The position numbers and the translations under genes are program-made. Below are positions 5,163-60,349 of a DNA stretch of 64,000 nt, in pieces (position 1 is the first letter of the stretch; each line of letters starts with the position of its first letter). Source of the DNA: Chiloscyllium plagiosum (taxonomy: Eukaryota); NCBI RefSeq assembly GCF_004010195.1, contig NC_057755.1, positions 9,277,306 to 9,341,305 on the forward strand. The letters are read 5' to 3'. The notes beneath the pieces are model-generated. The model worked only from the letters and a program-made list of their open reading frames with translations. It was not told the DNA's origin and did not search any database.

Positions 5163-7305
5163 ATGGAACGGCCAATGATTCTGCTGATTAAGGAGATTTA
5201 TTATCCAATTCTTGCAACCATTGGTTTTCCTGGTGAGCCTGGTTTAAACTTTATATTGTGAATGCCAGTGAATTGCCTCAGAGTTCTAAATCTACTCTGG
5301 GAAATCTAGAATATTTCTCGGATCTCTGTGATGCAGTGGCAGATTTTACCCCTATTGACTCAGAAATCCTCTGTTCACATTGTACTTGTTTCACTAGGCT
5401 GATAATTTTGTTGATGTCTCCATATGTTTGAGGATTGAAACGTGCGAAATACGATTAAGAAAGTAAATGTAGAGCGGGTGTTTCTTCATGTTGGGCAATC
5501 CAGAACGAGAGGTTGTAGGTTTAGAATTTTGGCAGTTTTCATACCGGTATGGGGGACAGTTACGTATCTGAAAAGGGCGTCAATCTCTGAAATTCGAAGC
5601 CCAAGTGAATCACGGAAATCAGAACATTGAATAAATCTAAGGAAGAGGCAGAGAGATTTCAATTGCTTTGCAAGTTAGGATATCATTGCATGTGAAATAA
5701 TCATACATATGAGTTCCTACTCAGTACGCAAGAGTAAAGTCCCTACATATCTTTTAAGGGGCCGAATCATTCAGCGAAATAATTCATATCTTTGAGATTC
5801 ACAAAATTCATTTGTAACTTTCCAGCTCGTTCTCTTCATTGATCTTTGAAAATTTGTAACCAAGCACTGTTCTGTCCAGTCTTTGACACAATTCCAATGT
5901 AGTTGAGAATCCGGAAATCAATATCTGCGAGGTGTTAGTGTGATAAATAATCATGATGCTTTTGAAGTATTTTGATGTGTATTTGTATTGTTCAGGCATA
6001 AAGTTCAATGGACAAAGTGGTAGAACATGATATTCGAATAATTAAGGATGCATTTGAGTGGAGAAGACTTGTTTATTTCAAAGGACCTTTCTCTCTAATG
6101 CAGTATTCCCTGATTCGATGACATTTACCGACACTTACGAGAACAGAAATGCAATGTAATCTCATCAAAAGTATGTCATTTGGGGTGAGGGATGTTTTCT
6201 CATTTATAATACCACGATATGCAGTTGGTAAATTCCCGCTTTTGGTGTTGACATCTGGATAATCACATGATACACAATTAATGCTAAGGTTAATGTTTTG
6301 AGATTTCAAAAAATTGAGTGAACTTTTCTCTCCCCTTCCTTTCGTACAGCAAATATGATGACCATTGTCGTCCTTCTGCGAGGAAACTGAGGCCTCTCTA
6401 AATGTATCTCTGTCTACATGGTTTCCATGGCAGCAGCAGACCTGCTGGTTATAATCAATAACGTAATAGTTTATAGCATTCTCATATATCACTTTCCATT
6501 TTCTTTTCTGTCACAGACCCATATTTGTAAGTTTAACTATTATATGCTCTGTGTTTTGCTCAATTCATCCGTCTGGTTCACAGTCGCCTTTACGTTTGAT
6601 CGCTTTGTCGTCATCTGCTGTCCAAAGTTTAAGATAAAGTATTGTACTGTGCGAATTTCAGCTACAGTTGTAACAGTGAGCTGTATCCTTATGTGTATCA
6701 AGGATATCCCAATTTTCTTTGCATATGAACATGAATACATTATCAAACACGTGAAATGGAACTGCCAGTCAAGTGTGACATTTTTTTCCTCAATTGGAGG
6801 AGTCGTGTACATCTGGTTTTTCAGCATCTGTTTAGTTTGGATTCCTTTCATTTTAATTGCCTTGTTGAACTCATTGACGGTCAGACATATACTCGTGAGC
6901 AGTAAAGCCCGCAGAGCACTTCGAGTTCACACAATTGACAAACAATATGATCCCGAGATGAAGAATCGAATGAAATCTATTGTTTTACTCTTTGCTATCT
7001 CAGGAAGTTTCGTTCTGCTGTGGATGACAACTGTGCTAAACCTTGTAATGAACAGACTGACAAATCCTACTTATTATCGAGGAGATCTTAGAAATCCAGC
7101 ATATATTGCTGTCGAAACTGGAGCCATGCTGAGGTATTTGAGTTGCTGTTCAAACACATGCATCTACGCAGCGTCCCAGAGAAAATTCAGAGAAGAACTT
7201 GTCACTGTTTTGAAATGGCCCTGTGCATTCATTTTAAAGTTGTCAGAAACGAAAGGAAGACAGCGGAGAATACCTGGATTTGAATTTCAGTCATTTTCTG
7301 GATGA
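5163..7305 (+). pseudogene. GPR139/GPR142-like class A GPCR, copy 1; two exons (5163-5232, 6350-7305); in-frame TGA at 6388-6390
   Basis: Exon 1 ATG5163 reads MERPMILLIKEIYYPILATIGFP, followed by G|GTGAG donor. Acceptor is ttcgtacag|CA at 6350. Spliced frame reads ANMMTIVVLLRGN*GLSKC, with TGA where the other copies have TGT. The remainder (ORF 6418-7305) has AAADLL, FDRF, LLWMT and NTCIY. Confidence 0.85.
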
Positions 7306-8470
7306 GGCTTGGACTCTTTTGTCATACCGGCATAAAGATTATTAATTGGTAGAAAGGAAAAAAAAATCAGTGTCCTTTCAACCTTTCATCTACCACAAGA
7401 TTGTGACGCTTGTGTTATTACTCATTTCATTGGCCTAGTTATTGTTGGGAGAATAATAATATTTTCCCGTCATATGTAAATGGTTCCATAGATAGTGGAA
7501 CAATGCAAACTTCCTCATAATAAATTAAGAACAGATTCTAGAATCTCAGTATTTCTTCATTACAATATAAACATAGAAGGTTTTTGCATTTTCACTTAAT
7601 TTCACATGTAATTTAGTCGGTAAAACTATTCAATTGAATTCAAAACATACTTTAATTTCACATTGCGTTAAAAATACAGACAAAATAAATGTAAAAGTAA
7701 ATGCTTTACTGCCACTCCAGGGAAATACGTGGCAAAATGTTATTTATGTATATATAGTTGCTACTAATTTACTGGTACAATGTAATAGCATGCATTAAAC
7801 ACACTCCGGCAAAGGAAAATGAAGACAACCGGATTTTCCCATTAGCAATCATATTAGCAGGAGCCGAGACAGGTACAGTGGCTTCCACATCTAGCCTAAA
7901 GGCCCCAAAAACTGCACAAAGCTGAAACTATAAAACTTATTTCAGTGTGAGCTTCACCCCAAACATTCTCGCTGTTTGTATTGTTCCAACTTTGCATAAA
8001 AATCAAGTCCTCACATGTGTATCACTTCATTGACTTTTGTCCCGAAGCTCGGTCTTAACGTTCTTCATTAAAGAAAACCCGTCAGCATATACTTCTTAAA
8101 GCTATAGTATCCTCACAATACACCCCAACCGCCACTCCCCAAAAAATGAATCATCAATATGCAGATGGCTTTACTTTGAAACTTTACATTCGAAATGTAA
8201 AGAGAACATAGTATTGTGGAGATACAATTTCATGTCACGAAACTCAATCGTTGAATGAAATGAACATCCTTCCGCTGGAATTTTTGGAATGGTTTGCAGT
8301 TCTAGAATGTGCACAATAAGGGAAAGATGATTGCACTTGAGAAGTTCTCTAGCAGATGTAGCAGAACGTTACCTGGGATCGAGCAAATCACTCATGAAGA
8401 GAAATGGCTTAGATTGATATCACGAGCATTGTAGCTGAAGGGATTGTGAGTGGGTGTATATGAAAAATAA

Positions 8471-9028
8471 GAGAAAGTGAGGACTGCAGATGCTGGAGAT
8501 CAAAGCTGAAAAATGTGTTTCTGGAAAAGCGCAGCCGGTCAGGCAGCATTCAAGGAGGAGGAGAATCGACGTTTCGGGCATAATCCCTTCTTCAGGAATG
8601 AGGAAGGTGTGCCAAGCAGGCTAAGATAAAAGGCAGGGAGGAGGGACTTGGGGGGTTGGGGGGGGGGGGGCGTTGCTAATGCGATAGGTGGAAGGAGGTT
8701 AAGGTGAGGGTGATAGGCCCGAGACGAGGTGGGGGCGGTTATCTCAGTCCTAACCCTCGGACTCAGCACAGCCTTCTTGACGTGCAATCTTCTTCCCGAC
8801 CTCTCCACCCTAACCATTCTCCGGCCTATGACCCTCACCTTAACCTCCTTCCACCTATCGCATTCTCAACACCCCTCCCCCATGTCGCTCCTCCCTACCT
8901 TTAATCTTAGCCTGCTTGGCACACCTTCCTCATTCCTGAAGATGGTCTTTTGCTCGAAACGTCGATTCTCCTACTCCTTGAATGCTGCCTGACCTGCTGT
9001 GCTTTTCCAGCAACATATTTTTCAGCTC
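8471..9028. mobile_element. Large palindromic element, family 2 (arms about 230 bp)
   Basis: About 8504-8735 is inverted relative to about 8800-9027; degenerate ~13-bp TSD (tatatgaaacgta-like); empty site near 50590. Confidence 0.82.
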
Positions 9029-9504
9029 GGATATGAAACGTATACAATCATGAGAGACATTAACATGTAGAACATAAATAAGCTTTTCCTTTTATTGCAG
9101 GTATCAATAACCATGGGGCCTGGAAGTTCACAAAGGACAGAAGGTTTGGAAGGAATGAAACGAAAATCATTTTCATCCAGATGGTGATGGGAATCCGGAA
9201 CTCAATACATCAAAGTTTGTCATAGGCTGAACCCCTCATAACATTCATAAAAAACACAGATACTGGTTGCAATGCCAGTGCAGACACGGAGTTTGCAACA
9301 AGTGGTGTAAAATGGGAGTAGACACGTTAAGTCGTTGCTTTTCATTGTTGAGGATTTCATGCACTGAAAGTTTGTTTTATTTTCTTTAATCCTCCTGGAA
9401 TCTACGATTTGTACTGACAATTTCAAGGTCACAACATGAAAATCGGATCCTCAATATGTTCGTCATTTTTAGCAGATCGTGTTCACGAATCACTAAGACA
9501 TGGT

Positions 9505-9650: not shown

Positions 9651-9659
9651 GCTACGCCA

Positions 9660-12200: not shown

Positions 12201-12339
12201 CGTTCATTTCCAAAAGGATGTTACTGAACGATGTCTTTTGGTTTTTTTTTCTGAGAATCCACGACGGTGCTCGGACTTACACATATGATTTCTCACATTC
12301 ACTTAATACAACTTCCACAGTATTCCAAAACTGGATTCG

Positions 12340-13234: not shown

Positions 13235-15088
13235 TGGAATTATAAATATTGACTCGGCCAGAAATCTGAATTGGTCCAACAATTTGCAGTCTCCACAAAA
13301 ATGCATGGACAATGCATCACTACTCTCGGTCAGCAATATTATTATTTCCATTCTTTCAAATACCAAAGCAATGTTGTAATGTACCTTTGTTCAAATCCAA
13401 TCAAGGCTTGAGCTGTTCTTCATTTTTATTGATAGTTAAAGAGCAGCGAAGGAAGCACAGAGAATGAGCGGAATTAACGGGTGAGAAAGTTATCATTAAA
13501 CCTTTTCCTGTCTATCTCGAACGTCATTTCGCTTTACCACAGTTGGATATCAACCAGACCCGACGAATCTGTCTGCTACCATCATCTCCCCCAGCACCAG
13601 AAAAAGGTCATAACTCCTTTGCCATATTAAACAGATATTTAAAAGATCCAAATCTCCAATTCCACATCACGAGTCGGCAACATTCGTTGCCTTTAGGAAT
13701 AATTCAAATTCATTGGTATTCACGCTCCATTGAGATAAACTGTGTTTGTGCGCCTCCTCTACTTCACATGATGAAGGAGCAGCAGTCCAAAAGCTTGTGA
13801 TTTTAATAAGATCTGTGGGATTGGACGTTTGTGTCTATGGATTTGACTTCGCCCACGCAAGTGCAACTTTGACATTTCCATATTATTTAGGACTCTGAGT
13901 ATCTCACAATTCCATCTCAAATTACAACACCATCTCAGTAGGATTGGAGAACTGTGCTCCTGACTCACCTCATCAACTCTTCTATTGTGTGACGTCCTGT
14001 CTCTAAATTTATTGTAAGTGCTTTGTCTCCAATTTTCATTTCAAAACAAATTTAGGTTCATTAGTAACTCTGCAGAAAATTGCATGAATCACAAGAGATT
14101 CCAGTCCAAATTTAACTTCCATTTTCCCTATATTCTTTTATTCCACAGCTTCCTCGCTGCGTTATATATCAGTTCTTCACAGCTCCTGGATTATAACTCA
14201 AATAAATGTCACCCCTATTCATTCCCATAAACTAATCTAATTGCCGGACGCAATTTCGGGAGGAAAAAGTGCCATCCTTCCCTGGTTGGCCTCCGTGTAA
14301 TTTCAGAAACAGCAATGTAATAGACAATACTCTGCGGGAAGAGGAACGGGAGAGGAAATAGTGACGATGCTGACACAAGTTTAACAAGGTTATGCTGTCC
14401 TTGGTATTTTTTTAAACAGTCCAGAAAAGCAGCATTTCTGAAAGGTCTCGCTTGGATGCATTTAAGGGCCAGTTTGATTATTGTTAACAAATACTGCCTT
14501 TGGAAAAGGCTTTCACGTTAAAAAATACTTGTAAAAGAAAAGAGGAGTGACCAGTTTTGCCATATTACCTTTCCTCTGGAATGTTGTTGTTTAGCAGCTT
14601 GTATATTTTAAATTTACTTGTCCAAGAAACAGCCACGTGGAAGATTCTGTTCCATGCGAAGCATCTCTGGCATTTCTCCCTCTCCTGTAACAATTTGTCT
14701 TTTATTTTACATTTATTGTTGCCGCGGTGGTCATGCAGATTGTTGAAGGAATTTGCAACAGCATCATTAAAATTGAATAACATTTTGAGTTTCCGAATAG
14801 ATTAAGTAAATCTGTGTTCTGTTCTCCGTTTGTATTTCGTTTGGAAGGCTTTCAAATAATTTCAGCTTTGTTTAATGCTACATGGTTGGGCCTGCTACAT
14901 CACTCCTGGAATATGCATCTTGTACCTGTTTAAAGCAGTTCTGAAAGTTAGCGTCTGGCTACTTTCTTGAAATGTTTTGAGGGGCCGTGGCCTGATACAT
15001 AACAGATTGGAGCCTCAAAGTTGGTGAGAAGATTTGTAGCTCGGGTGCTCATTGCTGTGGTTCTGTTCGCCGAGCTGGAAGGTTTTTT

Positions 15089-15128
15089 ACAAACGTTTCG
15101 TCCCCTGTCTAGGTGACATCCTCAGTGC
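15089..15128 (-). ncRNA. Minimal hammerhead ribozyme motif in Penelope pLTR
   Basis: gca-CUGAGGA-U-GUCACCU-AGAC-AGGGGAC-GAAACGUU-ugu. Confidence 0.65.
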
Positions 15129-16232
15129 TTGGGAGCCTCCTGTGAAGCGCTTCTGTGGTGTTTCCTTCGGCATTTATAGTGGACTGTCCCTGCCGCTTCC
15201 GGTTGTCAGTTTCAGCTGTCCGCTGTAGTGGCCGGTATATTGGGTCCAGGTCGATGTGTTTGTTGATGGAGTTTGTGGATGAGTGCCATGCTTCGAGGAA
15301 TTCCCTGGCTGTTCTTTGTTTGGCTTGCCCGAAAATGGTCGTGTTGTCCCAGTCGAATTCGTGTGGCTACTAGGGATAGCTGGTCGTGTCGTTTCGTGGC
15401 TAATTGATGTTCGTGGATGCGGATCATTAGCTGTCTTCCTGTTTGTCCTATACAGTGTTTTGTGCAATCCTTGCATGGAATTTTGTACACTACATTAGTT
15501 TTGCTCATGCTGGGTATCGGGTCCTTCATTCTGGTGAGTTGTTGTCTGAGTGTGGATGTTGGTTTGTGTGCTGTTATAAGTCCTAGTGGTCGCAGTATTC
15601 TGGCTGTCAGTTCAGGGATGTTCTTGATGTTTGGTAGTGTTGGGTTGCGGCATGTCCTCGTTCCGTTGTCTTTCCTTTCGGCATCTGTTGATGAAATTGC
15701 GAGGATATCCGTTTTTGGCGTATACCTTGTGTAGGTGATCCTCTTCCTCTTTTTGCAGTTCTGGTGTGCTGCAGTGTGTTGTGGCCCATTTGAATAGTGT
15801 CTTGATGCAACTTCGTTTTTGTGTATTGGGCTGGTTGCTTTCATAGTTCAGGACTTGGTCTGTGTGTGTGGCTTTCCTGTGTAACTTTGTGGTGAATTCT
15901 CCGTTTGGTGTTCTCTGTACCATCACGTCTAGGAATGGGAGTTGGCTGTCCTTTTCGTCCTCTCTCGTGAATCGGATTCTTGTGAGTATGGAGTTGATGA
16001 TCCGGTGTGTTTTTTCTATTTCCGTGTTTTTAATGATTACAAAGATGTCATCAAAGTATCTGACCCAGAGTTTGGATTGAATTTGTGGTACGACTGTTTG
16101 TTCTAAACTTTGCATTACTGCTTCTCCAATGAGTCCCGAGATCGTAAAGCCCATGGGTGTTCCGTTGATTTGTTCGTATACCTGGTTATTGAATGTGAAA
16201 CACCACAGAAGCGCTTTACAGGACGCTCCCAA

Positions 16233-16272
16233 GCACTGAGGATGCCACCTGGACAGGGGTCGAAACGTTTGC
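16233..16272 (+). ncRNA. Minimal hammerhead ribozyme motif in inverted pLTR copy (helix II partly degenerate)
   Basis: gca-CUGAGGA-U-GCCACCU-GGAC-AGGGGUC-GAAACGUU-ugc. Confidence 0.55.
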
Positions 16273-17374
16273 AACAAAAACTTCCAGCTCGGCGAACAGA
16301 ACCACAGCAGATTGGAGGCGCTTTGCGGGGTTTGTCCAATAGTTCCAAAACTGGGATTATAATTTTTTGAACTCAAAGGCTGCGAGTGGCATCTGTTGGT
16401 GCCTTTTGCTCTGTGTGTTGAGTTCAGTTAGTTAAAACAATGCTTGGGATAGAATTTGCTCTTTCAGTCACTGGCAGTTTTCTGCGGATGGAAAAAGTGA
16501 CTTTGGAAATTTAACAAACGGTGATTGACGGCCAGCTGCTGGAATGAGCAGACAAGCTGGGGATCTGATATCCTCCTACCTTAAAGAAAAAAAAAACATA
16601 ATTACAATAATAGCTCAGCACTTACGTTTGAAGGAAACGCCGTCAGAAACCATGTGGATGCTTGAAAGTGAATAAGAAATTATGCAGCTTGAGATGAGAC
16701 AAAAAAATGAATGGTCAACACAAACAAAAAGTTTAGAGATGCAATTTATAGCATAAAAAGGAAGAGAGAGATAAGGGAAAGTAAAGGATAGTGAGGAAAA
16801 TAAGGGAGGGCGTTTGAACTTTAATAAATTGGCACTTAGACAGGGCAGTCAGCTTCGGAAAGAGCTGAAGATAAGTCTAGTGAGGAAGGGAGTGACTACA
16901 ACCAAAGCCATGGTAACTATTGGCCTGGTGAGAAACTGTTTAAATATATTCAATCATTGCCTAAATTTGACTGGAATGATGTGGAAGACGTTTCCGTCTA
17001 ATTTTGTACGAGCGTAGATAGCAGTGTATGTTTACTGGGACAGCATTAATGTCCCAAAGGGTCTCATTTGTAATGTATTTCGCAATTTTTTTGTGAAAAT
17101 GCATAACCCTCAATTTTTTAAAAAATCATTTATTGACTTCTTTTGCACTCACGGTCATAGTTTCTTCCAATCTCCTCGTTGTAGAAAACATTACAATGTC
17201 ATGCGCATGCATTTTTTTTCAGTTTTCTTTTTTGATGCTTTCTTACAAGGTCCAATTGAAGCCACTCTTTTTCATTGCACATTTAAATATTCTGAACTAC
17301 ATACTCGACTTTCGTAAGGATGAAACACTTTGGTTTTCAATTTTCACTTCATCATTTGTCGTATCCTTCCGAAT

Positions 17375-17554
17375 NNNNNNNNNNNNNNNNNNNNNNNNNN
17401 NNNNNNNNNNNNNNNNNNNNNNNNNNNNNNNNNNNNNNNNNNNNNNNNNNNNNNNNNNNNNNNNNNNNNNNNNNNNNNNNNNNNNNNNNNNNNNNNNNNN
17501 NNNNNNNNNNNNNNNNNNNNNNNNNNNNNNNNNNNNNNNNNNNNNNNNNNNNNN
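17375..17554. other. Assembly gap (180 N)
   Basis: Run of N. Confidence 1.
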
Positions 17555-18149
17555 TCTAAATTAATTGTCGAGAGTATAGTGCTGGAAAAGCACAGGAGGT
17601 CAGGCAGCATCCGAGGAGCAATAGAGTTAGCGTTTTGGGCTGACTCTCTTGCTCCTCAGATGCTGTCTGACCTGATGTGCATTCCCAGCACCACACTCTC
17701 GACTCTAATGTCCAGCATCTGCGGTCCTCACTTTTAACTAAATACCTAAATTCGTTCAATCCAACAGATAAATAATTATCCCCTAGCATCGTTCCTTCCG
17801 GTATAATAAGCTTAATTCTTTGCCCGATCTGCTTCAGTTTAACTTCTCCCTCTTCTGTCTCGTACCTACCACATGTTTCAAGATTTTCAAGATCTTTCTG
17901 GGATGTTGCTGCTATTCTCTGCCTTCGTGGTGTGCACAGATATTGTGAGGAATTTTGCTCTTTTCATTTTAATATGAATATAGAAATCCACTTGGAACCC
18001 TTACAGCTCAATTCAATTTTGCAAAGCCATCTGCCTTTGAAGACAGAAATGATGAGTGTTTCTTTTCACTTGGAGAGTTGAGAGAGCTGCATAAATCTAA
18101 TGTCCAGATTGTAATGATGTCTGGGAAACCAAATGTACTCAACGTTGTA

Positions 18150-21100
18150 ATCAATGGATTTTTAATTCACAGGGGATTCCATGGTACGTGGGCAGTCCGA
18201 AAATAATGAAGTTGGATTGTGCTCTTATTAGACTAGCTGTAATTTCAAGTGTCAGTGAGACATACTGGATCCGAAAGTGGATCTGGGACTCACTGTTTTA
18301 TTGCTCACGTGTTGTCCTTTAACCCTTCCCATGCAACAATGCTTAATGTGACAGCAATATGGTTGACTCTCAACTGCTCTCTGAAACATTCTGGCAAGCC
18401 GCGGAGTTGTACTAATCGCTAGAAGGTCATAACAAAGAAACGAAAATCGATGGACAACGTGGCATCGACTTTGCAACCGGAAAAGAAATGGCAAAAACAC
18501 AAACAGCCTGTCGACCATGCAAAGTCCTTCTTACCAACATCTGTGGGCTAATACCGAAATTGGTGAAGCTATCTCACAAACTAGTAAAGCAACAGCATGA
18601 CATAGTCATTTTAATGTAAATATACTTTGCAGATAACACTCCTGACAGCACCGTTACCATACCTGGATTTGTTCTATTCCACTGCCAGGACAGTCTCAGA
18701 GGAAGTGAATGCACAGTGGTACAGATTCGGAAGGGAGTTGCACTGGGAATTCTTGACAGCGACTCTGGACCTCATGAAATCTCATGCCTTCAAAGGTGAG
18801 GAAATGTTTTACTGGTGACAACACACCATTCCCCTTTGGCTGATGAATCAGCGCACCTGCCTGGGGAGCAATACTTGGAGGAATTTCTGAGAATGGCAAG
18901 AGTGGAAAATGTACTTTGGGTGCGGGATTTCAATGTCCACCATCCGAAGATGATGGGCAAGAGCACCAGTGATCGAGATGTTTGCATTCTAAAGGATACA
19001 ACTGCTAGACTATACCTAGGGCAGCTGGTGAAGGAAACAACAAAAGGAAAATTTTCACTGACTTCCTACTAAATAATCAGCCGGCTGCAGAAATATCTGT
19101 CCATGACAGTTCAGGTAAAAGAGACCACCGCATTGTCCTTGTGGAAGCGAAGGCCCGCCTTCACATTGGGAATCACCATTCTGAATGGTGCAGACTTCGA
19201 ACCGATCTCGCAGCTCAAGACTGAGCATCCATGAAGTGCTGTGGCCCACCCAAAGCAGCAGAACTGCACTCCAGCGCAATCTACAACCTCATGACATGGC
19301 ATATCCCCCACTCAGCCACTAGCATCAACACTTGGGATTAACCATGGTGCTCTGGAGAGTGCAGGAGGCCTTGCCAGGAACAGCATCAGACATACATAAA
19401 AATGAGTTCTGAACTTGGTGAAGATATCAAACGGCATAAACAGCAAGTGATAGACGGAGCAAAGCGATCCAACAACGAATGGATCATATCTAAGCTCTGC
19501 AGGTTTTCCAATTCCTGTCTTGAATGTTGGTGGACAATTAAACAACTCAGCAAAGAAGAAATCTCCACAAATATCCCCATCCTCAATGATATAGATGGCC
19601 GCACATCAGTGCAAAAATAAGGCTGATACATTCGCAGTAACCTTCAGTCATACGTGCTGAGTGGATGATCCATCTCACGCTCTTGCAGCTGTCCGCAGCC
19701 TCTCAGATAACAGGTTCCTGCCAATTCTCTTGAGTCCACTTGATATCAAGGAAAGGTTGCAGGCACTGCATACTGCTAATGGGATATGATAAATTCAAAC
19801 GTTTAACTTAAGACGTGAGATCCAGAATCAGGTGCTCCCCAAGCCAAGATCTTCCAGTATAGTTGCAACACTGGCTTCTACCCGACTAGGTGGAACATTG
19901 CCCAGGTATGATCTGTGCACAAAGAGCAGGACAAATACAACCCGGCCAATTATTGCACAATCAGTCTCCTCTCCATTCTCAGTAAAGTAACGGAAGCGGT
20001 CATCAAAAGTGCTGTCAAGAAGCACCTGCTCAGCAACAGCCTGCTCAGTGAAGTTCAGTTTGGGATTCGCCAGGATGAATCAGCTCCTGTTCTCGTTATA
20101 GCCTTGGTTCAAACATGGACAAAAGTGCTCAATTCCACAGGTGAGGTGAAGGTGACAGCGCTTGAAGACAAGGCTGCTTTTCACCGAGTATGCCATTAAG
20201 GGCCATGGGAAAACAGCAGCACAGGATATCTCTGCAGGAGTCCCTCATCGCTGTGTCCAGGGACCAAATATCTTCAAGTGCCTCATTAAAGGACTTCATA
20301 TGGTTCGAAGTGTGGACGTTCGCCAATGATTGCACAGAGTTCAGCGTCATTTGCAACTCCTCAGATACTGAAGGAATCCGAGCTCAAATCTAACAAGGTC
20401 GGGAAAACGTCCAGGCTTGGTCCGACATGTGGCAATCGTGCCAAACAAACACCAGACAATGAACACTACCAATAAGTGCCACTCCAACCACCGCCCCTTG
20501 ACATTCAACGTTATTACCGTCACTAAATCCCCGACTGTCAACAACCTTCCGTTTAACACTGACCAGAAACTCACTCGGAACCATTACGTAAATACATATT
20601 CTACAAGAGCAGGTCAGAGTCTATAGATGATATGGCGAGTGACATCCTAACAGTACAAAGACTCTGCACCATCTACAAGGCAAAATTCAGGTGTATGATG
20701 GAATACTCCCCTTAGCCTGGATGGGTGCAAGTCCAACAACACAGAAGAAGCTTGACACCATCCAAGGCAAAGCAGCCCGCTTGATTGGCACCCCATCAAC
20801 AAACAATCATTCCCTCTACCATCATCGCTGAGTAGCAGTAGCGTGTACTGTCCACAAGAAATACAGCAGAAATTCGTAAAGTCCCTTCGACAACACCATA
20901 CAAACATGCAACCATTTCCACCTAGCAGGGTAAGGGGATCATACAATTGAAAAAACCACCGCCAGCAAGTCCCCTCCCCAAGCGACTCACCATCCTGACT
21001 TAGAAAGATAATGCCGTTCCTTCAACCTCATTGTGTTAAATTCCTCGATTTCCCTCACGACCAGCATTGTTGGTCAACCCACAGCAACGAAACTGCAGGG

Positions 21101-21200
21101 ATTCAAGAAGCCAGCTCACCATCGCCTTCTCAAGTGCAAATAGTGGTGATCCATTAATGTTGGACAGCCAGTGAAGCCCACGTTGCGCAAGTGAAATAAA
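18150..21200 (+). mobile_element. Decayed non-LTR retrotransposon (CR1/L2-group LINE): AP endonuclease + RT remnants
   Basis: ORF 18815 has VLWVRDFNVHH (GDFN-like); ORF 19915 has NPANYCTISLLSILSKVTE..QFGIRQ..ALEDKAAFHRV. 5' boundary approximate. Confidence 0.8.
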
Positions 21201-22468
21201 AGTCAACTGAACTAACCAATGATGGACAATTGAAGGGATTTCAGCATGACGACTCAAACAAGTGATTTCACTTGAAGATATTTGCGCCCTCTCCTGGCCT
21301 CTTCGATGCACTTCACAGATGCATGCCTCACCAAATAAGTCACGTTACTGACAATGTGGACAACGTATTATAAATGATCGCACCGAATGCTTAAATCCAA
21401 CTGGTCCACATCAACCATATTCACAAACACCAATCCACCCATGCGTTTGCGTTATCACCCAGGTCCCTTCAAACTCTTTCTGATCATGGACTTAGCGAAA
21501 TGTATTTTGAAAGTTGCAACTGTGCCTGCATCCAACATTTCTTGTGGCAGTATTTTCTTTGGAAAAGGATTTTTTTTTGTGCGAAGAGTTGACACTCATG
21601 TCTTTCTGTTGAAACATTCTACTCTCACTTAAAAATATACCCCATAATCTTGGGAAACAGTCTTCGCTTATCCATGTATCACACGATTTTATAAATTTAT
21701 GTTGGGTCCCCACTCAACCCTTTAGGCTTAACGGGCTCAGTGGTTAGCATTGTTCCCTCACAATACCAGGAACCTGTGTTCCAAACCGACATCTGTCGAC
21801 TGTCTGTGTGGAGTTTACACTTTTGCCCCGTTTCTGGGTGGGTTTACCCCGGGTGCTATTTTTCCTCTCACAAAGCAGAGACGTGCAGGAAAGATGAATT
21901 GGCTATGTAACCTGCACATAGGGTTCAGGGATGTGTGGGGCAATTGCGTTACGCAGTGAAAAATATCGAGTAATAGGGCAGGGAATGCCTCTGCGTGGTT
22001 TACATTTTGCAGGATCGGGTTGGACTTGTTGGGTCCATTGGCCAGTTTCTACATTGTAGCAATTCGACGATGTATCCATTGTCGAATCATCACGTCTGTT
22101 TGAGAACACTACTCAGGACATTACCATTAATTTTGTCTGACCTTTACTTGTCTGTTTTCAAAAATGCAATACCTCACATTGATACAAATTAAACTCCGTC
22201 TGCCAGACGTCAGCCCTTTGTTCCAATTGATCAAGAACTCTTAATAAATTGATTCAGCAACAATTCCAATGCTCCTGAAGAGAAATGATCAACATCAACT
22301 GCTTGTGATCCAATTGGGAGACGGTTGCTTGCAAATCATCATTCAAAACAAATTTAACTAATTCTTTTGAGAGATGACGCATACTTAAATAGAAGATATC
22401 TGATCTGACTCTGGTGAGCGCTTGTCTGAGTTTCTCACGTCGAACAAAACATATCACTCCTCAGAAAA

Positions 22469-22538
22469 ATGGAACGGCCAAAGATTCTGCTGATTAAGGA
22501 GATTTATTATCCAATTCTTGCAATCATCGGTGTGCCTG
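22469..22538 (+). CDS. GPR139/GPR142-like GPCR copy 2, coding exon 1 (MERPKILLIKEIYYPILAIIGVP + 1 nt)
   Basis: ATG at 22469, 70 nt, phase-1 donor G|GTGAG at 22539; supplies the N-terminus and first half of TM1; conserved in all four copies. Confidence 0.88.
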
Positions 22539-23657
22539 GTGAGCCTGGTTTAAACTTTATATTGTGAACGTGTGTGAATTGCTTCAGAGTTCTAAACCTA
22601 CTCTGGGAAAACTAGAATATTTCTCCGAACTCAGTGACACAATGGCAGATTTTACCCCTATTGTCTCATAAATCCTCTGTTCACATTGTGCTTGTTTCAC
22701 TGGACTGATAATTTTGTTGCTGTTACCATAGGTTTGAGGTTTGAAACGGGCGAAACATGACTAACAAAGTAAATGTAGACCGGATGGTTCCTCATGTTGG
22801 GCAATCTAGAACGAGAGGTTATAGGTTTAGAATGGTGACAGATTTCAAACAGGTATGGGGAGAGTTACATTAATTAAAGTGGCGTCAATCTCTGGAATTC
22901 ACTGCCCAATCGTATCGTGGAAATCAGAAAATTGAATTAACCTAAGGAAGAGGCTGACAGATTTCACTTGCTAAGCAGGTTAGGATATCACCACATGAGA
23001 AATAATTATACATATCAGTTCCTACTCAGTATGCAAAAGTAAAGTCCCTACATATCTTTTATTGGGCTGAATTATTGAGTGAAATAATTCATATCTTTGA
23101 AATGCACAAAATTCTCTAGTCACTTTGCAGCTCGTTCTCTTCATTGATCTTTCCAAATTTGTAACCAACCACTGTTCTGTCCTGTATTTGCCACAATTCC
23201 AATGTAGTTGGTAATCCGGAAACCAATATCTGCGAGGTTTTAGTGTGACAAATAATCATGACGCTTTTGAAGTATTTTGGTGTGCTTTGTGTTGCTAAGG
23301 CATAAAGGTCAATGGACAAAGTGCTAGATCATTTTATTCGAATAGTTAGGGATGTATTTGAGCGGAGGAGACTTCCTTATTTTAATAGACCTTTCCCTCT
23401 GATGCAATCTTCTCTTATTCAATGACACTTAATTACACTTACGAAAAGACAAATGCATTAAAATCTCATCAAACATATGTCATTTGCGTTGAGGAGATTT
23501 TTTTTGTTCTTTATAACGTCATGAAAAGCAGTTGGTAACTTCCTGCTTTTGGTGTTGACATCTGGATAATCACATGGTTCACAATTGATACCCAGGTTTG
23601 TGCTTTGAGAGTTCAAAAAAAATGAGTTAACGTTTGTCTCGTCTTCCTTTTTTACAG

Positions 23658-24613
23658 CAAACATGATGACCATTGTCGTTCTTGTGCGAGGAAACTGTGG
23701 CCTCTCTAAATGTATCTCTGTCTACATGCTTTCCATGGCAGCAGCAGACTTACTGGTTATAATCAATAATGTAATAGTTCATAGCATTCTTACGTATTAC
23801 TTTCCATTTTCATTTCTGCGTCAGACACATACTTGTAAATTTATTTTTTATCTGCACTGTGTTATGCTCAATTCATCCGTCTGGTTCACAGTCGCCTTTA
23901 CGTTTGACCGCTTTGTCGTCATCTGCTGTCCAAAGTTTAAGACAAAGTATTGTTCTGCGCGAATTTCAGCTACAGTTGTAACAGTGAGCTGTATCCTCAT
24001 GTGTATCAAGGATATCCCAGTTTTCTTTGCGTATGAACATGAATATATTATTAAACACGTGAAATGGAACTGCCAGTCAAGTGTGACATTTTTTTCCTCA
24101 ATTGCAGGAGTCGTGTACATCTGGTTTTTCAGCATCTGTTTAGTTTGGCTTCCTTTCATTTTAATTGCCTTGTTGAACTCATTGACGGTCAGACATATAC
24201 TCGTGAGCAGTAAAGCCCGCAGAGCGCTTCGAGTTAACACAATTGACAATCAATGTGATCCCGAGATGAAGAATCGAATGAAATCTATTGTTTTACTCTT
24301 TGCTATCTCAGGAAGTTTCGTTCTGCTGTGGATGACAAGTGTGCTAAACCTTGTAATTAACAGACTGACAAATCCGACTTATTATCGAGGAGATCTTAGA
24401 AATCCAGCGTATATTGCTGTCGAAACTGGAGCCATGCTGAGGTATTTGAGTTGCTGTTCAAACAAATGCATCTACGCAGTGTTCCAGAGAAAATTCAGAG
24501 AAGAATTTGTCGCTGTTTTGAAATGGCCCTGTGCATTCATTTTAAAGTGGTCAGAAATGAAAGGAAAACAGCGGAGAATACCTGGATTTGAATTTCAGTC
24601 ATGTTCTGTATGA
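23658..24613 (+). CDS. GPR139/GPR142-like GPCR copy 2, coding exon 2 (spliced product 341 aa, intact)
   Basis: Polypyrimidine tract plus tttacag|CA AAC ATG. Hydrophobic TM segments; TM1 GVPAN across the junction, TM2 AAADL, TM3 FDRF, TM6 LLWMT, TM7 NKCIY, helix 8 RKFREE. Confidence 0.9.
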
Positions 24614-24827
24614 GGCTTGGACTCTTTTGTCATACCGGCATAAAGATTATTAATTGGTAGAAAAGAAAAAAAATATCAGTGTCCGTTCAACTTTTCATCT
24701 TCCACAAGAATGTGACGCTTGTGTTATTACACATTTCATTGGCCGAGTCATTGTTGGGAGAATAATTATATTTTCCCGTTGTATGTAAATGGTTCCATAG
24801 ATAGTGGAACAGTGCAAACCTCCTCAT

Positions 24828-24833
24828 AATAAA
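24828..24833 (+). terminator. Candidate polyadenylation signal AATAAA (paralogs 7519, 31985, 48872)
   Basis: About 215 nt after the stop codon; retained even in the divergent flank of copy 4; no transcript evidence. Confidence 0.3.
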
Positions 24834-25774
24834 TTAAGAACAGATTCCAGCATCTCAGTATTTCTTCATTACAATATAAACATAGAAGTTTTTTGCATTT
24901 TTCACATAATTTCACATGTAATTTCATCGGAAAAACCATTCAATTGTATTCCAGACATACTTTAATTTCACATTGCGTTAAAAATGCAGACAAAATAAAT
25001 GTAAAAGTAAATTCTTTACTGCCACTCCAGGGAAATTCGTGGCAAAATGTTATATATGTATATATAGCTGCTACTAATTAACTGGTACAATATAATAGCA
25101 TGCATTAAACACGCCCCGGCAAAGGAAAATGAAGACAAACCGATTTTTCCACAAGTAATCGTATTAGCAGGAACCGAGACAGGAACAGGGGCTTCCAAGT
25201 CTAACCTAAAGGCCCCCAAAACTGCACAAAGCTGAAACTATAAAACATATTTCAGTGTGAGCTTCACCCCAAACATTCTCGCTGTTAGCATTGTTCCACT
25301 TTTGCTTTAAAGTCAAGACCTCACATGTGTTGACTTTGGTATAAACTCCCGCTGCTCGATCTTAACTTTCTTCATAAAAGAAAACCCGTCAGCATATACT
25401 TCTTAAAGCTATATTATCGTCACAATACACCCCAACCGCCACTTCCCGAAAATCGAATCATCAATATGCAGATGGCTTTACTTTTAAACTTTGCATTCGA
25501 AATGTAAAGAGAACATAGTATTGTGGAGACACAATTTCATGTCACGAAACTCAACCATTGAATGAAATGAACATCCTTCCGCTTCAACTTTGGAATGGTT
25601 TGCAGTTCTAGAATGTGCACAGTAAGGGAAGATGATTGCACTTGAGAAGTTCTCCAGCAGATCTAGCAGAACGTTATCTGGGATCGAGCAAAACACTCAT
25701 GAAGAGAGATAGCTTAGATCGATATCACTAGCATTGTAGCTGAAGGGATTGTGAGTGGGTGTATATGTAACGTA

Positions 25775-26323
25775 GGAGTAAGTGACGACTGCAGATGCTG
25801 GAGATCAGAGCTGAAAAATATGTTGCTGGAAAAGCGCAGAAGGTCAGGCAGCATTCAAGGAGGAGGAGAATCGACATTTCGGGCATAAGCCTTTCTTCAG
25901 GAATGAGGAAGATGTGCCAAGCAGGCTAAGATAAAAGCTGGGTAGGAGGGGTTTGGGGGAGGGGCGTTGGTAATGCGATAGGTGGAAGGAGGTTAAGGTG
26001 AGAGTGATAGGCCGAAGAGGGGGTGGGGGCGGTTATCTCAGTCCCAACCCTCGGACTCAGCACCGCCTTCTTGACCTGTAATATTCTTCTCGACCTCTCC
26101 GCCCCCACCTCCTCTCTGACCTATCATCCTCACCTTAAACTCATTCCACCTATCGCATTCTCAACGTCCCTTCCCCAAGTCCCTCCTCCCTATCTTTTAT
26201 CTTAGCCTGCTTGGCACACCTTCCTCATTCCTGAAGAAGGGCCTATGCCCGAAACGTCGATTCTCCTACTCCTTGGATTGTGCCTAACCTGCTGCGCTTT
26301 TCCAGCAACACATTTTTCAGCTC
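25775..26323. mobile_element. Large palindromic element, family 2 (duplicate of 8471-9028)
   Basis: Same position within the duplication unit and same inverted arms. Confidence 0.82.
26227..26264 (+). ncRNA. Hammerhead-like motif of a second PLE-derived family (related copies near 4351-4390 +, 8563-8600 -, 8931-8970 +, 33036-33072 -, 33393-33430 +)
   Basis: cauuc-CUGAAGA-A-GGGC-CUAU-GCCC-GAA-ACGU-C-gauuc: core boxes, 4-bp helix II, ACGU palindrome, GUC triplet; helix I is weak (U-U mismatch). Confidence 0.5.
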
Positions 26324-26627
26324 GTAAACGAAATGTATACAATTATGAGAGGCATTGATAGGTAGAACATAATAAAATTTTCCCTTTATTGCAGGTATAT
26401 ATAACCATGGGGCCTGGAAGTAAACAATGGACAGAAGGTTTGGAGGTAATGAAACGAAAAGCATTTTCATCCGGATGGTGATGGGAATCCGGAACTCAAT
26501 ACGTCTAAGTTTGTCGGAGGCTGAACCCCTCATAACATTCAGAAAAAACACAGATACAGGTTGCAATACCAGTGCATACGCCAGTCAGTCAGCAACTTCT
26601 CTCTCTCTCTCGTTGCTCTGCTAATAT

Positions 26628-26630
<3 letters not shown>

Positions 26631-26680
<50 letters not shown>
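26631..26680. repeat. (CT)n microsatellite (shorter paralogs near 9703-9756 and 33802-33821)
   Basis: Directly visible dinucleotide run. Confidence 0.95.
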
Positions 26681-26685
<5 letters not shown>

Positions 26686-28598
26686 CTCGCATCTCTCTCT
26701 TTCTCTGTTTCTCTGACAAACTTTGGTTTTTGAGTACCTCCCTTGAAATTTCAGCTCTACTTGGACATTGATTGAACTCAAATTTAACTTCTTTGCTAAT
26801 TCTAAAACTTTTGGACTTTTTCTGTCCTTCCAAACCTCCTTGGAAAATTTGAGAACTATCTTCAAATCCCAAAACTTCTTTATCAATTTTAAGAACCACG
26901 TTTCTCACTGCTAATTTGATCAACCACAGGTTGCCAAAATTAAGCACATTTTCTCACCTATGTTTTCTTTCAGGTTCTACGACATTAACTCGGAAGAGGT
27001 TTATTCTGCTGGGATTTTTCGTACGCTTAATCTATCTCGTACGCTTAATCTATTTCGTACGCAAAACCAGTTTAAATGCCGAACAAAAGCCAACGAACTG
27101 TTTTGAGACAATGTAAAACACCAACCACTCTCCTCCCTCCCAGCTAACTGAAACCATCAACACAGAAATGATGTAACCAGTCGTGTAACCTGTTAAATTT
27201 AGAGAGGCCTAAAACCATCTCAAATATCACTATTTAAAGTGAAAATAAACGACTTCATTTTTCAAACAAAACCGAAAAGAAAATAATTAAGATCACAAGT
27301 ATTTACAACTCCTTTCTGTAACCTATTTTTTCCTTTCCCTTCTATGATACCGTTCTGATAAATCCCGATTTAGATTAACCAAAAAATCAGAATTTCTAAA
27401 CCAGCCAGCTGTCAAATTTTGTCTTTGTATCTTCCTCTGTCTTATTTTTTTCTTCTTAGGATTTCTGTTCACAGGTCATTGGTAAATAATGATACATTTA
27501 AGAGAGCTATTATGCAGGCAGTCTGCATATGTTGATGGCTTGGCAGTTCTCCCCAACTGTTCATTTTTTCCTGATCTTCAACCCCAAAGCATCAGATCGT
27601 TTCATAAATTTTTAATATTGTCAAAAAACCAAATTGATACTGATTGGGTAAAGTATCTTGGGACATAAGGTAAACGGATTGGCCGAATTTAATTTAGTTT
27701 TATTGTGTCGTAGCAACACATGTTCTGCCAGCTGCCAGACTAAACGTTGCATTGTAAATTCTTCCGCCCTCTGTATGCTTGCTAAGTCCTTCAACACTCG
27801 TAAACATGCAGTGCCCCGTACACCTTCATAACAAAACCAAGAACTCAAGTGTTGTGGAGACTGGGAAGGTACCTGCTGTTCAGGTCGTGTTGAGATCAGT
27901 CGTGAATGTAATATGTGGCAGATCAAGATCGATGGGCTGAATGGTCTTCTTTCTTTCGTAGCTCTTACATTCTGTCGACTTATCTATTCAGTCGTTTCAC
28001 ATTCTTATGAGAATATGACACCTGTAACTTAGCACAATATTCCAGCTGAAACAGAATTAGAGATTCCCACAGATTCAATATAAACTACTTGCTGTTGTAC
28101 TCCGTGTCTTATTAACGAAGGATACATGGTGATTTATTAATCCGTCTCTAAATTTATGCTATACGAACTGTAGTAATACAAACAAGCAACTACTTCTTTG
28201 TCAACAATCCAGGATGATAGATTCTTTAAATGTGTCTATCTTTGTGTAAAATCGGTCAATTTTTTAAAAAAATAATTCCATCACAGGCTGTTTTAGTTTG
28301 AGAATGCCACACATCAAATGCATAGATATTTAAGTTGAGATATGTGAATCGATATACTTTGAGATAAATAAAATGACAATGCAGTCGAATCAAAACCAAA
28401 TCATCTTTCTGCGATGTGAAGGAAAGGGTCTCAGACAAATATGTTCAAACATGTTGATTGTACGAGGTTAAATTGCAACTCTGATTAGGAAAGCACATGT
28501 AAAACTTAGATTTGGTAATGGGGACACAGAAAAAAAAATGTCATGATCATAATTCTTCCTTTTTCCATTAAGCCTGAGCTTGAGAGCTGTCAAAAAAC

Positions 28599-29631: not shown

Positions 29632-29701
29632 ATGGAACAGCCAAAGATTCTGCTGATTAAGGAGATTTATTATCCAATTCTTGCAACCATCGGTGTGCCT
29701 G
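29632..29701 (+). CDS. GPR139/GPR142-like GPCR copy 3, coding exon 1 (MEQPKILLIKEIYYPILATIGVP + 1 nt)
   Basis: ATG at 29632, 70 nt, donor G|GTGAG at 29702. Confidence 0.88.
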
Positions 29702-46570: not shown

Positions 46571-48693
46571 ATGGAACGGCCAAAGATTCTGCTGATTAAA
46601 GAGATTTATTATCAAATTCTTGCAACCATCGGTGTGCCTGGTGAGCCTGGTTTAGACTTTACATTGTGATTGTTTGTGAATTGCCTCAGAGTTCTAAACC
46701 TCCTCTGGAAAATCTAGAATATTTCTGCGATCTCAGTGAAGCAATGGCAGATTTTACCCCTATTGTCTCATAAATCCTCTGTTCACATTGTGCTTGTTTC
46801 ACTGGGCTGATAATTTTATTGCTGTTACCATATGTTTGAGGTTTGAAACGGGCGAAAGATGACTAACAAAGTAAATGTAGACCGGATGGTTCCTCATGCT
46901 GGGCAATCTCGAACGTGAGGTTATAGGTTTAGAATGGTGACAGATTTCAAACAGGTTTGGGGGAGAGTTAAATATCTTAAAGGGGCGTCAATCTCTGAAA
47001 TTCACTGCCCAAGCGTCTCGTGGAAATCAGAAAATTGAATTAACCTAAGGAAAGGCAGACAGATTTCACTTTCTTAGCAGTTTAGGATATCACTACATGA
47101 GAAATAATTATACATATGAGTTCCTACTCAATATGCAAGAGTAAAGTCCCTGCATATCTTTTATTGGGTCGAATTATTCAGTGAAATAATTTGTATCTTT
47201 GAAATGCACTAAATTCACTAGTAACTTTCCAGCTCGTTCTCTTCATTGATCTTTCCAAATTTGTATCCAACCACTGTTCTGTCCTGTATTTGCCACAACT
47301 CCAATGTAGTTGAGAATCCGGAACCAATATCTGCGAGGTTTTAGTGTGACATATAATCATGACGCTTTTGAAGTATTTTGGTGTGCTTTGTTTTGCTAAG
47401 GCATAAATGTCAATGGACAAAGCGCGAGATCATTTTATTCGAATAGTTAGGGATGTATTTGAGCGGAGGAGACTTCTTTATTTCAATAGACCTTTCTCTC
47501 TGATGCAATCTTCTCTTATTCAATGACACTTACACTTACGAAAAGACAAATGCAATGTAATCTCATCAAACATATGTCATTTGGGGTGAGGAGATTTTTT
47601 TTGTTCTTTATAACGTCACGATAAGCAGTTGGTAACTTCCTGCTTTTGGTGTTGACATCTGGATAATCACATGGTTCACAATTGATACCTAGGTTTGTGC
47701 TTTGAGATTTCGAAAAATTGAGTTCACGTTTGTCTCGTCTTCCTTTTTTACAGCAAACATGATGACCATTGTCGTTCTTGTGCGAGGAAACTGTGGCCTC
47801 TCTAAATGTATCTCTGTCTACATGCTTTCCATGGCAGCAGCAGACTTACTGGTTATAATCAATAATGTTATCGTTTATAACATTCTTACTTATTACTTTC
47901 CATTTTCATTTCTGCGTCAGACACATATTTGTAAATTTATTTTTTATCTGCGCTGTGTTATGCTCAATTCATCCGTCTGGTTCACAGTCGCCTTTACGTT
48001 TGACCGCTTTGTCGTCATCTGCTGTCCAAAGTTTAAGACAAAGTATTGTTCTGTGCGAATTTCAGCTACAGTTGTAACAGTGAGCTGTATCCTCATGTGT
48101 ATCAAGGATATCCCACTTTTCTTTGCGTATGAACATGAATATATTATTAAACACGTGAAATGGAACTGCCAGTCAAGTGTGACTTTTTTTCCTCAATTGC
48201 AGGAGTCGTGTACATCTGGTTTTTCAGCATCTGTTTAGTTTGGCTTCCTTTCATTTTAATTGCCTTGTTGAACTCAATGACGGTCAGACATATACTCGTG
48301 AGCAGTAAAGCCCGCAGAGTGCTTCGAGTTAACACAATTGACAATCAATGTGATCCCGAGATGAAGAATCGAATGAAATCTATTGTTTTACTCTTTGCTA
48401 TCTCAGGAAGTTTCGTTCTGCTGTGGATGACAAGTGTGCTAAACCTTGTAATGAACAGACTGACAAATCCTACACATTATCGAGGAGATCTTGGAAATCC
48501 AGCATATATTGCTGTCGAAACTGGAGCCATGCTGAGGTATTTCAGTTGCTGTTCAAACACGTGCATCTACGCAGTGTCCCAGAGAAAATTTGTCGCTGTT
48601 TTGAAATGGCCCTGTGCATTCATTTTAAAGTGGTCAGAAATGAAAGGAAGACAGCGGAGAAAACCTGGATTGAATTTCTGTCTCGTTCTGTAG
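46571..48693 (+). pseudogene. GPR139/GPR142-like GPCR copy 4; exons 46571-46640 and 47754-48693; frameshifted
   Basis: Same exon structure as the other copies. A 1-nt deletion at about 48184 (gtgac-ttttttt vs gtgacattttttt) splits the ORF. There is also a 12-nt deletion in helix 8 (QRKFVA vs QRKFREEFVA) and an altered C-terminus. Confidence 0.8.
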
Positions 48694-58590: not shown

Positions 58591-59891
58591 CCCACTTCTG
58601 TCTTTGACACCTCCCCCTTCTGTCTTTGAAGACGAGAATAAGCAGGCGTCTGTTATTTGTGGTGACCAGGTGTGGAAGTTAGGTGCATTTTGCTTCTTGA
58701 TGGAAAGTGCTTTACAGATACCTCGACTGCAGGTGAAACTTATGCACAAGCTGATTGCAGAATTTGAATGAAAATTGGTGCCTCGTGGAAAGACTGTCAG
58801 TCAGGCAGGGACAGGTTGGAGTTTGATCTGGTTTTTGGGCTCTGTTTGATGTGGAACGCTTCAAGGCGGAGGTTTGGTGTCATAGAATCATACAGATGTG
58901 CACACTGGAAAGAGATCTTTCGATCGCACTCGTCCATGTTGAACAGATCTTCAAAATTAAACTCGTCCCATTTGCTAGCACTTGGTCCATGTCCCATTGA
59001 AAACTTGCTGTTCATATACCTGTTCAGATGTGTTTTGAACTTAATAATTGTACAAGCTTCCACCATTCCCTACCCTCCCTCTTATCATGAGGATATTGAA
59101 AGTTCAGACAATACAATGCCCATTTTTTTAAAGAATCGTTTTCATATTTGTTGGAGGCTGTCTGCGTGTGACAGTGTCAGCACAAACCAAGCTAAATACA
59201 AGCCCATGTTGCTGTCATGCGTGCGGACCATCGAAACTGCTTCAGGAAAGTGTCCAAGCACATCCAAACTATTTCCTTCGCCTGATGTATCGTTTTAATG
59301 TATTTAATTGCCTATCTACCTTCGCCTGAGAGATAGGGTAAGATTGAAAGTGGGTTGAGTTAAATCATAGGAATTAGTTATTATAATTTATTCTTTAACT
59401 TAGCCCTCGTATGATTACTGTTCTGAGAACAGTTGACCTAATGTTCTCTTGAGATTTAAAACTGTAATCTGATACCAGTCGTTCATTGAATCTGGCACAA
59501 TGTATTTTAAGAGTCCAGTTAAGTAGCATTGGGATAAAGGGCAAAGTCCATTGGATTTTTTAATTCGATTGTGTTTTGGTTGCATGGCTTTGCTGTCAGT
59601 CTCCATTTCATAGTCTACTCAGAAGTTAACTTGTTTGACCACAAGTGCTTTGTTGAAAGCACTTAACTGGATGATTCTGGAAATAAGCCAAATTTCAGTC
59701 CCTCTGTTCTGAGTATTCAGTTTTTTGTTGTTCCATAATGCAATTTCCAACATTTTAACATTTGTACAGTTAAACATACCACTGCACACGAGTCTCAGTG
59801 GCAAAGTTTTTGAATATTGCATCACAAAATTTTGCACACTTTTAGTTTCTTATGAGATCCATTTTAAAACGACTGCCCATTTCACTTGCAG

Positions 59892-60349
59892 CGAATCAGA
59901 CGACAATTATAATTCTCGCCAGGGAATACTGCGGCGGTTTGTAATTCGAGCTACATAGTGGCCATGACAATAAAAATTCCTATGATCATGACTTTTAATG
60001 TAAATGTGCATCACGTTTTCGGTCAATACTTTACATATTCCTTCTTCTCCTCCACTGGTTTTGCACGTTATTTCAATGCATGAACTCACTGCACAAGTTC
60101 ACATTTAATCCATAGTTAGAATGGTATTTTCAGAGCCTGGAAACAAAGTATTGCAGAGTGAAAACAATGGTTGCAATTAAAATGAGAAGCACTGCCCTGG
60201 TTTGCTTGGAGAACATGTCCTTTCTGTTTGCATATGAACCTGAAACAGTCACTGATCATTAACAGTTGGGTTGTTACACAAAGTTGAAAGTTTTCACTTC
60301 ACCACTAGGTGTAGCTTTTCTTGTTTACACAGAGCAGTATTTTAGTTTT
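59892..60349 (+). pseudogene. Old decayed paralog of the same GPCR family (exon 2, TM1 to TM5 part)
   Basis: Acceptor ttcacttgcag|CG AAT in the same phase. Translates in pieces to NQTTIIILAREYCG, YIVAMT..FNVNVHHVFGQYFTYSFFSST and FTFNP*LEWYFQSLETKYCRVKT..CLENMSFLFAYEPE..GCYTKLKVFTSPLG, collinear with the intact copies; contains stops and frameshifts. Confidence 0.75.

Follow-up and report, generated by a model that had tools for sequence, protein, structure and literature searches.

Results

Four two-exon receptor genes and a relic

The window analysed here, a 64,000-nucleotide stretch of Chiloscyllium plagiosum contig NC_057755.1 (positions 9,277,306–9,341,305), carries four class A G-protein-coupled receptor (GPCR) genes, c1–c4, all on the plus strand and each formed by two exons and 341 codons, followed by one older relic (six-frame scan and tblastn). 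The tblastn E-values, 0 to 3e-166 for the four copies and 1e-6 for the relic, put the matches far beyond chance. A single coding intron of 1113–1119 nt (GT..AG, phase 1) interrupts each copy within transmembrane helix 1 (TM1). Exon 1 of c1 (5163..5232, 70 nt) encodes the amino terminus and the first half of TM1 and closes on a phase-1 GT donor; exon 2 (6350..7305) is broken by a TGA at 6388–6390 (codon 37, TGT in the other copies), its remaining frame being open. The genes c2 (22469..22538, 70 nt, and 23658..24613) and c3 (29632..29701, 70 nt, and 30816..31771) are intact, and their 341-residue products pass Pfam 7tm_1 with E-values of 4.5e-20 and 2.9e-20, respectively (72.7 and 73.3 bits against a cut-off of 30.5). 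In c4 (46571..46640, 70 nt, and 47754..48693) a frameshift leads to a stop at 48236–48238, helix 8 lacks 12 nt and the tail is altered. The frameshift is a one-base loss at about 48184, adjoining a run of seven T, and could therefore be a consensus error; the second deletion argues for real decay. The c4 lesions are not among the listed 12 of 15 indel rows from two public DNA runs, which neither confirm nor remove them.

The relic (59879..60328, plus strand) extends from the end of TM1 to the start of TM5, with several stops and frame changes, and is recovered by a profile of the receptor family (described below) at iE 2.7e-12 and 6.5e-5. Its best tblastn partners are members of other subfamilies, making it an older paralog and not a decayed copy of c1–c4. 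The same profile search of the window finds no locus beyond c1–c4 and the relic. The initial annotation had listed five same-strand loci (two intact, one with a nonsense codon, one frameshifted and one relic) with one phase-1 intron in TM1; scan, tblastn and profile place all five on the plus strand, and the intron is present in all four copies. A crude rule, by which a few models are flagged wrongly, marks 43 of 165 database models for loss of likeness just before N1.50, which points to an intron that may lie at this position family-wide.

A recent tandem amplification

The copies were duplicated with their flanks as a unit of about 17 kb, the spacing being 17.3 kb from c1 to c2 and 16.9 kb from c3 to c4; the c2–c3 distance of 7.2 kb spans a gap. 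Self-BLAST traces the unit around c2 over 13235..28598 (about 15–17 kb with flanks and shared retroelement pieces) and finds its individual blocks 77–96% alike to those of the c1, c3 and c4 units. Three runs of N (12735–13234, 17375–17554 and 28599–29098) place c1, c2 and the group of c3, c4 and relic on separate gap-free stretches, the last group lying together on 29099–64000. The repeat unit lacks about 10 kb on the upstream side of c3, at the position of the 500-N gap (28599–29098). Further sequence, perhaps further copies, may be hidden in the gaps.

Because these gaps part c1, c2 and c3, the array could in principle be an assembly artefact, haplotigs of one gene set in tandem, an explanation that we regard as extremely improbable. 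The haplotig reading is refuted for c3 and c4 by the gap-free stretch that they share with the relic; the introns differ by 6–15%, and each copy has private changes. Pairwise likeness among the copies is 84.8–93.6% in introns and 93.7–97.2% in exon 2, and allelic differences in sharks are expected to be far smaller than such intron divergence. Two independent public DNA runs yield 165 and 144 contigs over c3, mostly 88–99% alike (at least 99% alike in 21 and 22), so several copies exist in other individuals. Both runs cover intron and flanks and show no spliced joint, which identifies them as DNA. The initial annotation had named haplotigs as the finding that would undo it; the copies are paralogs.

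Comparisons of c1 with each other copy give dN/dS of 0.42–0.54 (Nei–Gojobori, p 0.002–0.04), from which selection acted on c1 for most of its history, its stop being recent. A check for gene conversion rests on 12 informative coding sites (nine uniting c1 and c3, two c1 and c2, one c1 and c4), too few for a call. The window shows one subfamily of a large chondrichthyan family that was recently amplified in tandem, with a unit length of about 17 kb, and the birth-and-death evolution proposed for it is supported.

A receptor family of cartilaginous fishes

Proteins of this family are already public under the automatic name ‘probable G-protein coupled receptor 139’, which nearly all of the best 120 matches carry. 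At E ≤ 0.001, 1564 proteins matched in a word-seeded search; the best 120 are all elasmobranch (12 species), and the other 1444 possibly include non-family proteins. The top matches come from zebra shark (77% identity) and bamboo shark (75%). By hand count, the best 120 hold 32 clusters at 90% identity from Pristiophorus (sawshark), 28 from Heptranchias (sevengill) and 27 from Heterodontus (horn shark); 17 of the 27 Heterodontus rows seem to share one 74.9 Mb scaffold, which points to clustering of the members in that genome. An exhaustive search gave 97 clusters at 50% identity (E ≤ 1e-30), and 19 of 20 deep representatives are chondrichthyan, drawn from sharks, skates, rays and Callorhinchus milii.

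We built a maximum-likelihood (ML) tree of 64 hand-picked rows and a fast tree of 212 rows, both without true GPR139/GPR142 sequences. In the ML tree, 39 chondrichthyan rows form one clade (support 99/91) with the chimaera row nested within it, from which the expansion began before the chimaera/elasmobranch split. The window copies fall outside the best-matching bamboo-shark/zebra-shark pair (100/96) and may derive from a paralogous branch, one of the possible origins. Both this clade and the exclusive match to Pfam 7tm_1 agree with the earlier proposal of a lineage-expanded cartilaginous-fish family distinct from OR, TAAR, V1R and V2R receptors.

The sister clade (100/99) is a gene of frogs, salamanders, a caecilian and sturgeon (P0216, P0395–P0414), likely the co-ortholog of the whole shark family. 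At 27–31% identity to c3, it has the same very short amino terminus and a basic stretch at the start of TM6; it differs in its pocket, which is strongly conserved and has K6.51 in all 23 members, and in having one 90%-identity cluster per species among the 20 further matches listed. The gene is unnamed, occurs in all three amphibian orders and is about 70% identical across amphibians; no amniote or teleost is among the 25 proteins found. A second GPR139-like gene (P0226, P0277–P0394) is conserved from sharks via teleosts and amphibians to turtles and squamates; birds and mammals are missing from the best 120 of 145 matches. Its shark orthologs (P0277, P0280 and P0284) lie outside the expanded clade in the ML tree. 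This set has R6.51 in 85 of 85 members, but S or C replaces W6.48; two of its database models are labelled TMEM183A isoforms, which suggests that the gene adjoins TMEM183A.

Orphan GPR139/142-related genes without human orthologs have been described from fishes and coelacanth by Rinne et al. (2019, PMC6504862), namely GPR210A, GPR210B and a third set from gar and coelacanth, and the coelacanth P0226 protein and its orthologs are probably one of these. That survey deals with small gene sets, the words ‘shark’ and ‘cartilaginous’ are absent from its text, and the one supplementary file searched holds no match.

At the genomic level the family resembles the OR, TAAR, V1R/ORA, V2R and TAS2R receptors in its tandem clusters, pseudogenes, short amino terminus and variable pocket; it differs from them in matching Pfam 7tm_1 only and in its one coding intron in TM1. 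No receptor of those five groups is among the best 60 Protein Data Bank (PDB) matches of the family profile, and the closest kin are GPR139 and FMRFamide-receptor-like proteins. The nearest non-chordate clusters in the protein atlas are FMRFamide-receptor-like and often match Pfam Srw; they point to the invertebrate FMRFamide/MIP/sex-peptide receptor group, with which GPR139 has been grouped (PMC12208981), and to the nematode srw family. The srw family is expanded in nematodes (PMC3963977); the shark expansion is a separate one, in vertebrates, and the c2 and c3 proteins have no Srw match at E ≤ 0.001. Sex-peptide and MIP receptors among the invertebrate relatives (PMC12208981), together with testis expression of some catshark v2r genes (PMC11979771), would suit a reproductive repertoire for gamete or mate recognition in sperm, oviducal gland or placenta-like tissue; we hold this to be highly improbable, and labels of family genes are absent from the paper texts searched.

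Long relatives of 435–1244 residues are rejected as real long forms and read as joined gene models: of 18 scanned, five match an unrelated domain, at least faintly (hemopexin, sodium channel, integrin, uromodulin D8C, TRIM coil), and five have two 7tm stretches. Five joined models (P0233, P0222, P0190, P0138 and P0134) couple family members with uromodulin-like D8C, integrin alpha-X-like, sodium-channel, hemopexin and TRIM sequences, a hint as to which genes are their neighbours. Human GPR139 is located near GP2/UMOD, and the uromodulin link may reflect old synteny or be due to chance.

Relation to GPR139 and GPR142

Searched against the PDB, the family profile has human GPR139 as its best match (E 1.6e-25), followed by the neurotensin receptor (1.7e-18), and GPR139 is also the best PDB match for the profiles of both related single-gene sets. 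With c3 alone, CCR1 (6.6e-7) and GPR139 (3e-6) are level. Residue counts were made on full-length proteins (319 of 422 passed the filter), reduced by removal of near-duplicates to 166 family rows and to 23 and 85 rows of the single-gene sets. The family shares with GPR139 the TM1 signature, W6.48 and, for the most part, the lack of a proline at 7.50 (T in 126 of 166), and the GPR139 intron presumably lies at the same place as in the window copies. GPR139 has two exons (PMC7318219), as do the four window copies. Unlike GPR139, which has an Asp at the TM3 site, the family has a cysteine pair linking TM3 and extracellular loop 2 (ECL2; 162 and 161 of 166), and dozens of copies or more per genome where GPR139 has one.

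The identity of c3 to human GPR139 is about 24% (about 68 identities over residues 2–289, counted by eye); that between human and zebrafish GPR139 is 70% (PMC7318219). The GPR139 pocket comprises F109, H187, W241, N271, R244 and E108 (PMC7318219), positions at which c3 has C, F, W, A, T and H in the profile alignment, so that only W6.48 is kept. A positive charge at 6.51 (R6.51) is required for activation and is modelled as holding Trp or Phe (PMC8807744). The shark family has 17 different residues at position 6.51, with K or R in 4 of 166 members; in the two single-gene sets every member has K or R (85/85 and 23/23). With this charge and the pocket lost, the family is related to GPR139 but is not GPR139, and appears to have left the ancestral binding mode. 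Direct orthology to GPR139 or GPR142 is rejected on the low identity, the lost pocket and charge, and the closer, non-GPR139 sister gene in the tree. The original assignment as GPR139/GPR142-like therefore holds in so far as these are related class A receptors (profile E 1.6e-25); they are a distant paralog with an amphibian/sturgeon sister, not an expanded GPR139 or GPR142. The idea that aromatic-amino-acid sensing of the GPR139 type was carried over loses its footing with the pocket, and Trp/Phe sensing is not to be assumed.

These residues also bear on whether the family senses nutrients, as a multiplied version of GPR142 that would respond to products of digestion in enteroendocrine or islet cells. 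The low number and the conservation usual for nutrient sensors count against such a set. Kinship to GPR139 and the sensing of Trp and Phe by GPR142 in pancreas and gut (PMC7318219) speak for it, but the residue that holds these ligands, R6.51 (PMC8807744), has a basic counterpart in only 4 of 166 members, and we judge the explanation quite unlikely.

A variable pocket on a conserved core

We took 16 pocket positions from the GPR139 papers, independently of the family alignment. Their mean entropy relative to other TM positions is 1.65 in the 166 shark-family members, a ratio reached by 1 in 10,000 random sets, and 0.26 and 0.42 in the two single-gene relatives, where the pocket is conserved. 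A depth-matched subset of 114 members (mean identity 0.62 versus 0.59 in the control) gives 1.51 (p 0.003); the ratios obtained in the shark family were 1.65, 1.51 and 1.74. Besides W6.48, five core pocket positions rank in the top 1–7% of TM variability.

The signalling core is kept (D2.50, DRF, W6.48, P5.50, N7.49, Y7.53 and both disulfide cysteines), with activation motifs and the disulfide pair in 152–166 of 166 rows, lineages down to 29% identity included. Class A marks are present (N1.50, D2.50, R3.50, P5.50, W6.48 and N7.49/Y7.53), P6.50 and P7.50 being mostly absent. An AlphaFold model of the 77%-identical P0001 has seven helices plus helix 8 and a β-hairpin in ECL2 (pLDDT 88.8), and a fold search with it returns class A receptors only, with TM-scores of about 0.7–0.8 to peptide GPCRs and no preference among them. 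The amino terminus is indeed very short, as first noted, with N1.50 at residue 25 in 79 of 93 short canonical models.

Mobile elements in the window

A palindromic, MITE-like element of about 570 bp lies at 8482–9049, with arms of 173 nt at 86% and 64 nt at 91%; related copies are at 25804–26323 and 32972–33452, and a shorter one is at 4239–4445. The element stands downstream of c1, c2 and c3, inside the duplicated unit. Retroelement pieces on the minus strand occupy 15215–16427, which includes an RVT_1 fragment (15615–16427), and 60716–61482, which includes a 260-bp tandem duplication. The frame next to the RVT_1 fragment resembles, by motif only and with no Pfam match, what we take to be the GIY-YIG endonuclease of Penelope-type elements. 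Decayed LINE fragments lie at 57694–58800, 61739–62899 (RVT_1 at 62561–62899) and 11811–12137 on the minus strand and at 63598–63999 on the plus strand, the last with an SGNH/GDSL-like frame, presumably as in CR1/L2 ORF1.

Discussion

A conserved core, variable pocket, short amino terminus, tandem clusters and decaying copies form a pattern typical of the OR, V1R, TAS2R and MRGPR repertoires, which sample many ligands, and by analogy with them the family is very probably a ligand-diversified sensor repertoire. Copies would be gained by unequal crossing-over and acquire new specificities through changes in the pocket, with c1 and c4 as examples of redundant copies that decay. We more tentatively propose, again by analogy, that the ligands may be water-soluble chemicals of external or luminal origin (candidates are peptides, amino-acid derivatives and other small molecules) sensed by chemosensory cells of the nose, mouth, gill or skin; signalling would run via Gq/Gi, on the example of GPR139 only. 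We lean towards chemosensation because the family is large, because few chemoreceptors are known from sharks (65 genes in catshark; PMC6368271) and because of the kinship to the FMRFamide-receptor/srw group. For the whole of this reading, an amplified, ligand-diversified and chemosensory family, we estimate a probability of roughly 45%.

Several observations weigh against it. Pocket diversification marks any ligand-diversified family, whether it serves immunity, itch or the gut, and is not specific to chemosensation. Part of the pocket contrast arises by nature from comparing paralogs with orthologs, and the entropy ratio drops to 1.24 when only extracellular-half TM positions serve as the reference. 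The fold search did not single out GPR139, which ranks 25 among near-equal peptide receptors. As to expression, the catshark ‘brain & olfactory epithelium’ library has no GPCR among its 50 most specific genes (PMC11979771), a weak point for receptors expressed at low levels, and no srw gene had been experimentally proven chemosensory according to PMC3963977. A single-cell RNA sample of unspecified tissue gave 0 reads with only about 2% and 6% of its two runs read, too little for a test.

The newest copies, moreover, may be drifting: among c2, c3 and c4 dN/dS is 0.67–0.78 (Nei–Gojobori, p 0.25–0.53), indistinguishable from 1. Such values, the loss of two of four recent copies plus the relic, and the duplication of entire 17-kb units, retroelement pieces included, are what would be left if copy number drifted for the most part neutrally in a region prone to recombination and rich in repeats, with few copies having distinct work. 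We find this very doubtful for the family, given the purifying selection in the c1 comparisons, an exon 2 more conserved (94–97%) than the intron (85–94%), and deep lineages that keep their signalling motifs down to 29% identity with variation concentrated at the pocket.

Leukocytes, mast-like cells or skin nerve endings offer another setting, in which the receptors would form an immune or somatosensory repertoire for microbial, parasite or damage-derived peptides and would fill the role of the MRGPR/MAS and formyl-peptide receptor (FPR) expansions of bony vertebrates. Birth and death also shape the MRGPR and FPR families, and the genomic signature, with tandem clusters and pocket variability, would be the same. 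The reported absence of MAS1 and its relatives from cartilaginous fishes (PMC8455134) leaves room for such a repertoire and so also tells against chemosensation, and for the OR genes of sharks, expression is reported to be mostly non-nasal, for example in spleen (PMC11979771). There is, however, no sequence kinship to MRGPR or FPR, GPR139 being the best PDB profile match, and a bamboo-shark immune single-cell atlas (PMC11372145) shows no GPR139 or GPR142 label in its four supplementary files (4.0 million characters), which is weak evidence as other labels are possible. We consider this setting unlikely, if not negligibly so.

Whatever its function, a lineage-expanded class A family is real here and apparently undescribed. 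Full-text literature searches, which leave subscription journals largely outside their coverage, found no paper describing the shark expansion; GPR139 occurs only within a reference in the passages of PMC12294341 examined, and 12 of 24 whale-shark supplementary files searched hold no match. More speculative, and in our view somewhat doubtful, is that the family constitutes a further large chondrichthyan chemoreceptor family, derived from a GPR139-like neuropeptide-type receptor and possibly outnumbering OR, TAAR, ORA and V2R together. It would then have been overlooked as surveys used known families only, and would parallel the nematode srw expansion.

A paucity of GPCRs has been stated for cartilaginous fishes (PMC8455134). 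The presence of dozens of family members or more in each genome contradicts this, regardless of what the receptors do. The conserved amphibian/sturgeon sister, with its basic residue at 6.51 intact, offers a simple route to the ancestral ligand. If the receptors prove to be expressed in immune cells or skin nerves, they would be candidate stand-ins for the MAS/MRGPR receptors reported lacking in sharks. Expression in sensory cells would instead make them a new vertebrate chemoreceptor family: how sharks smell with few receptors would become testable, and such a family would explain keen chemical sensing despite a seemingly tiny repertoire.

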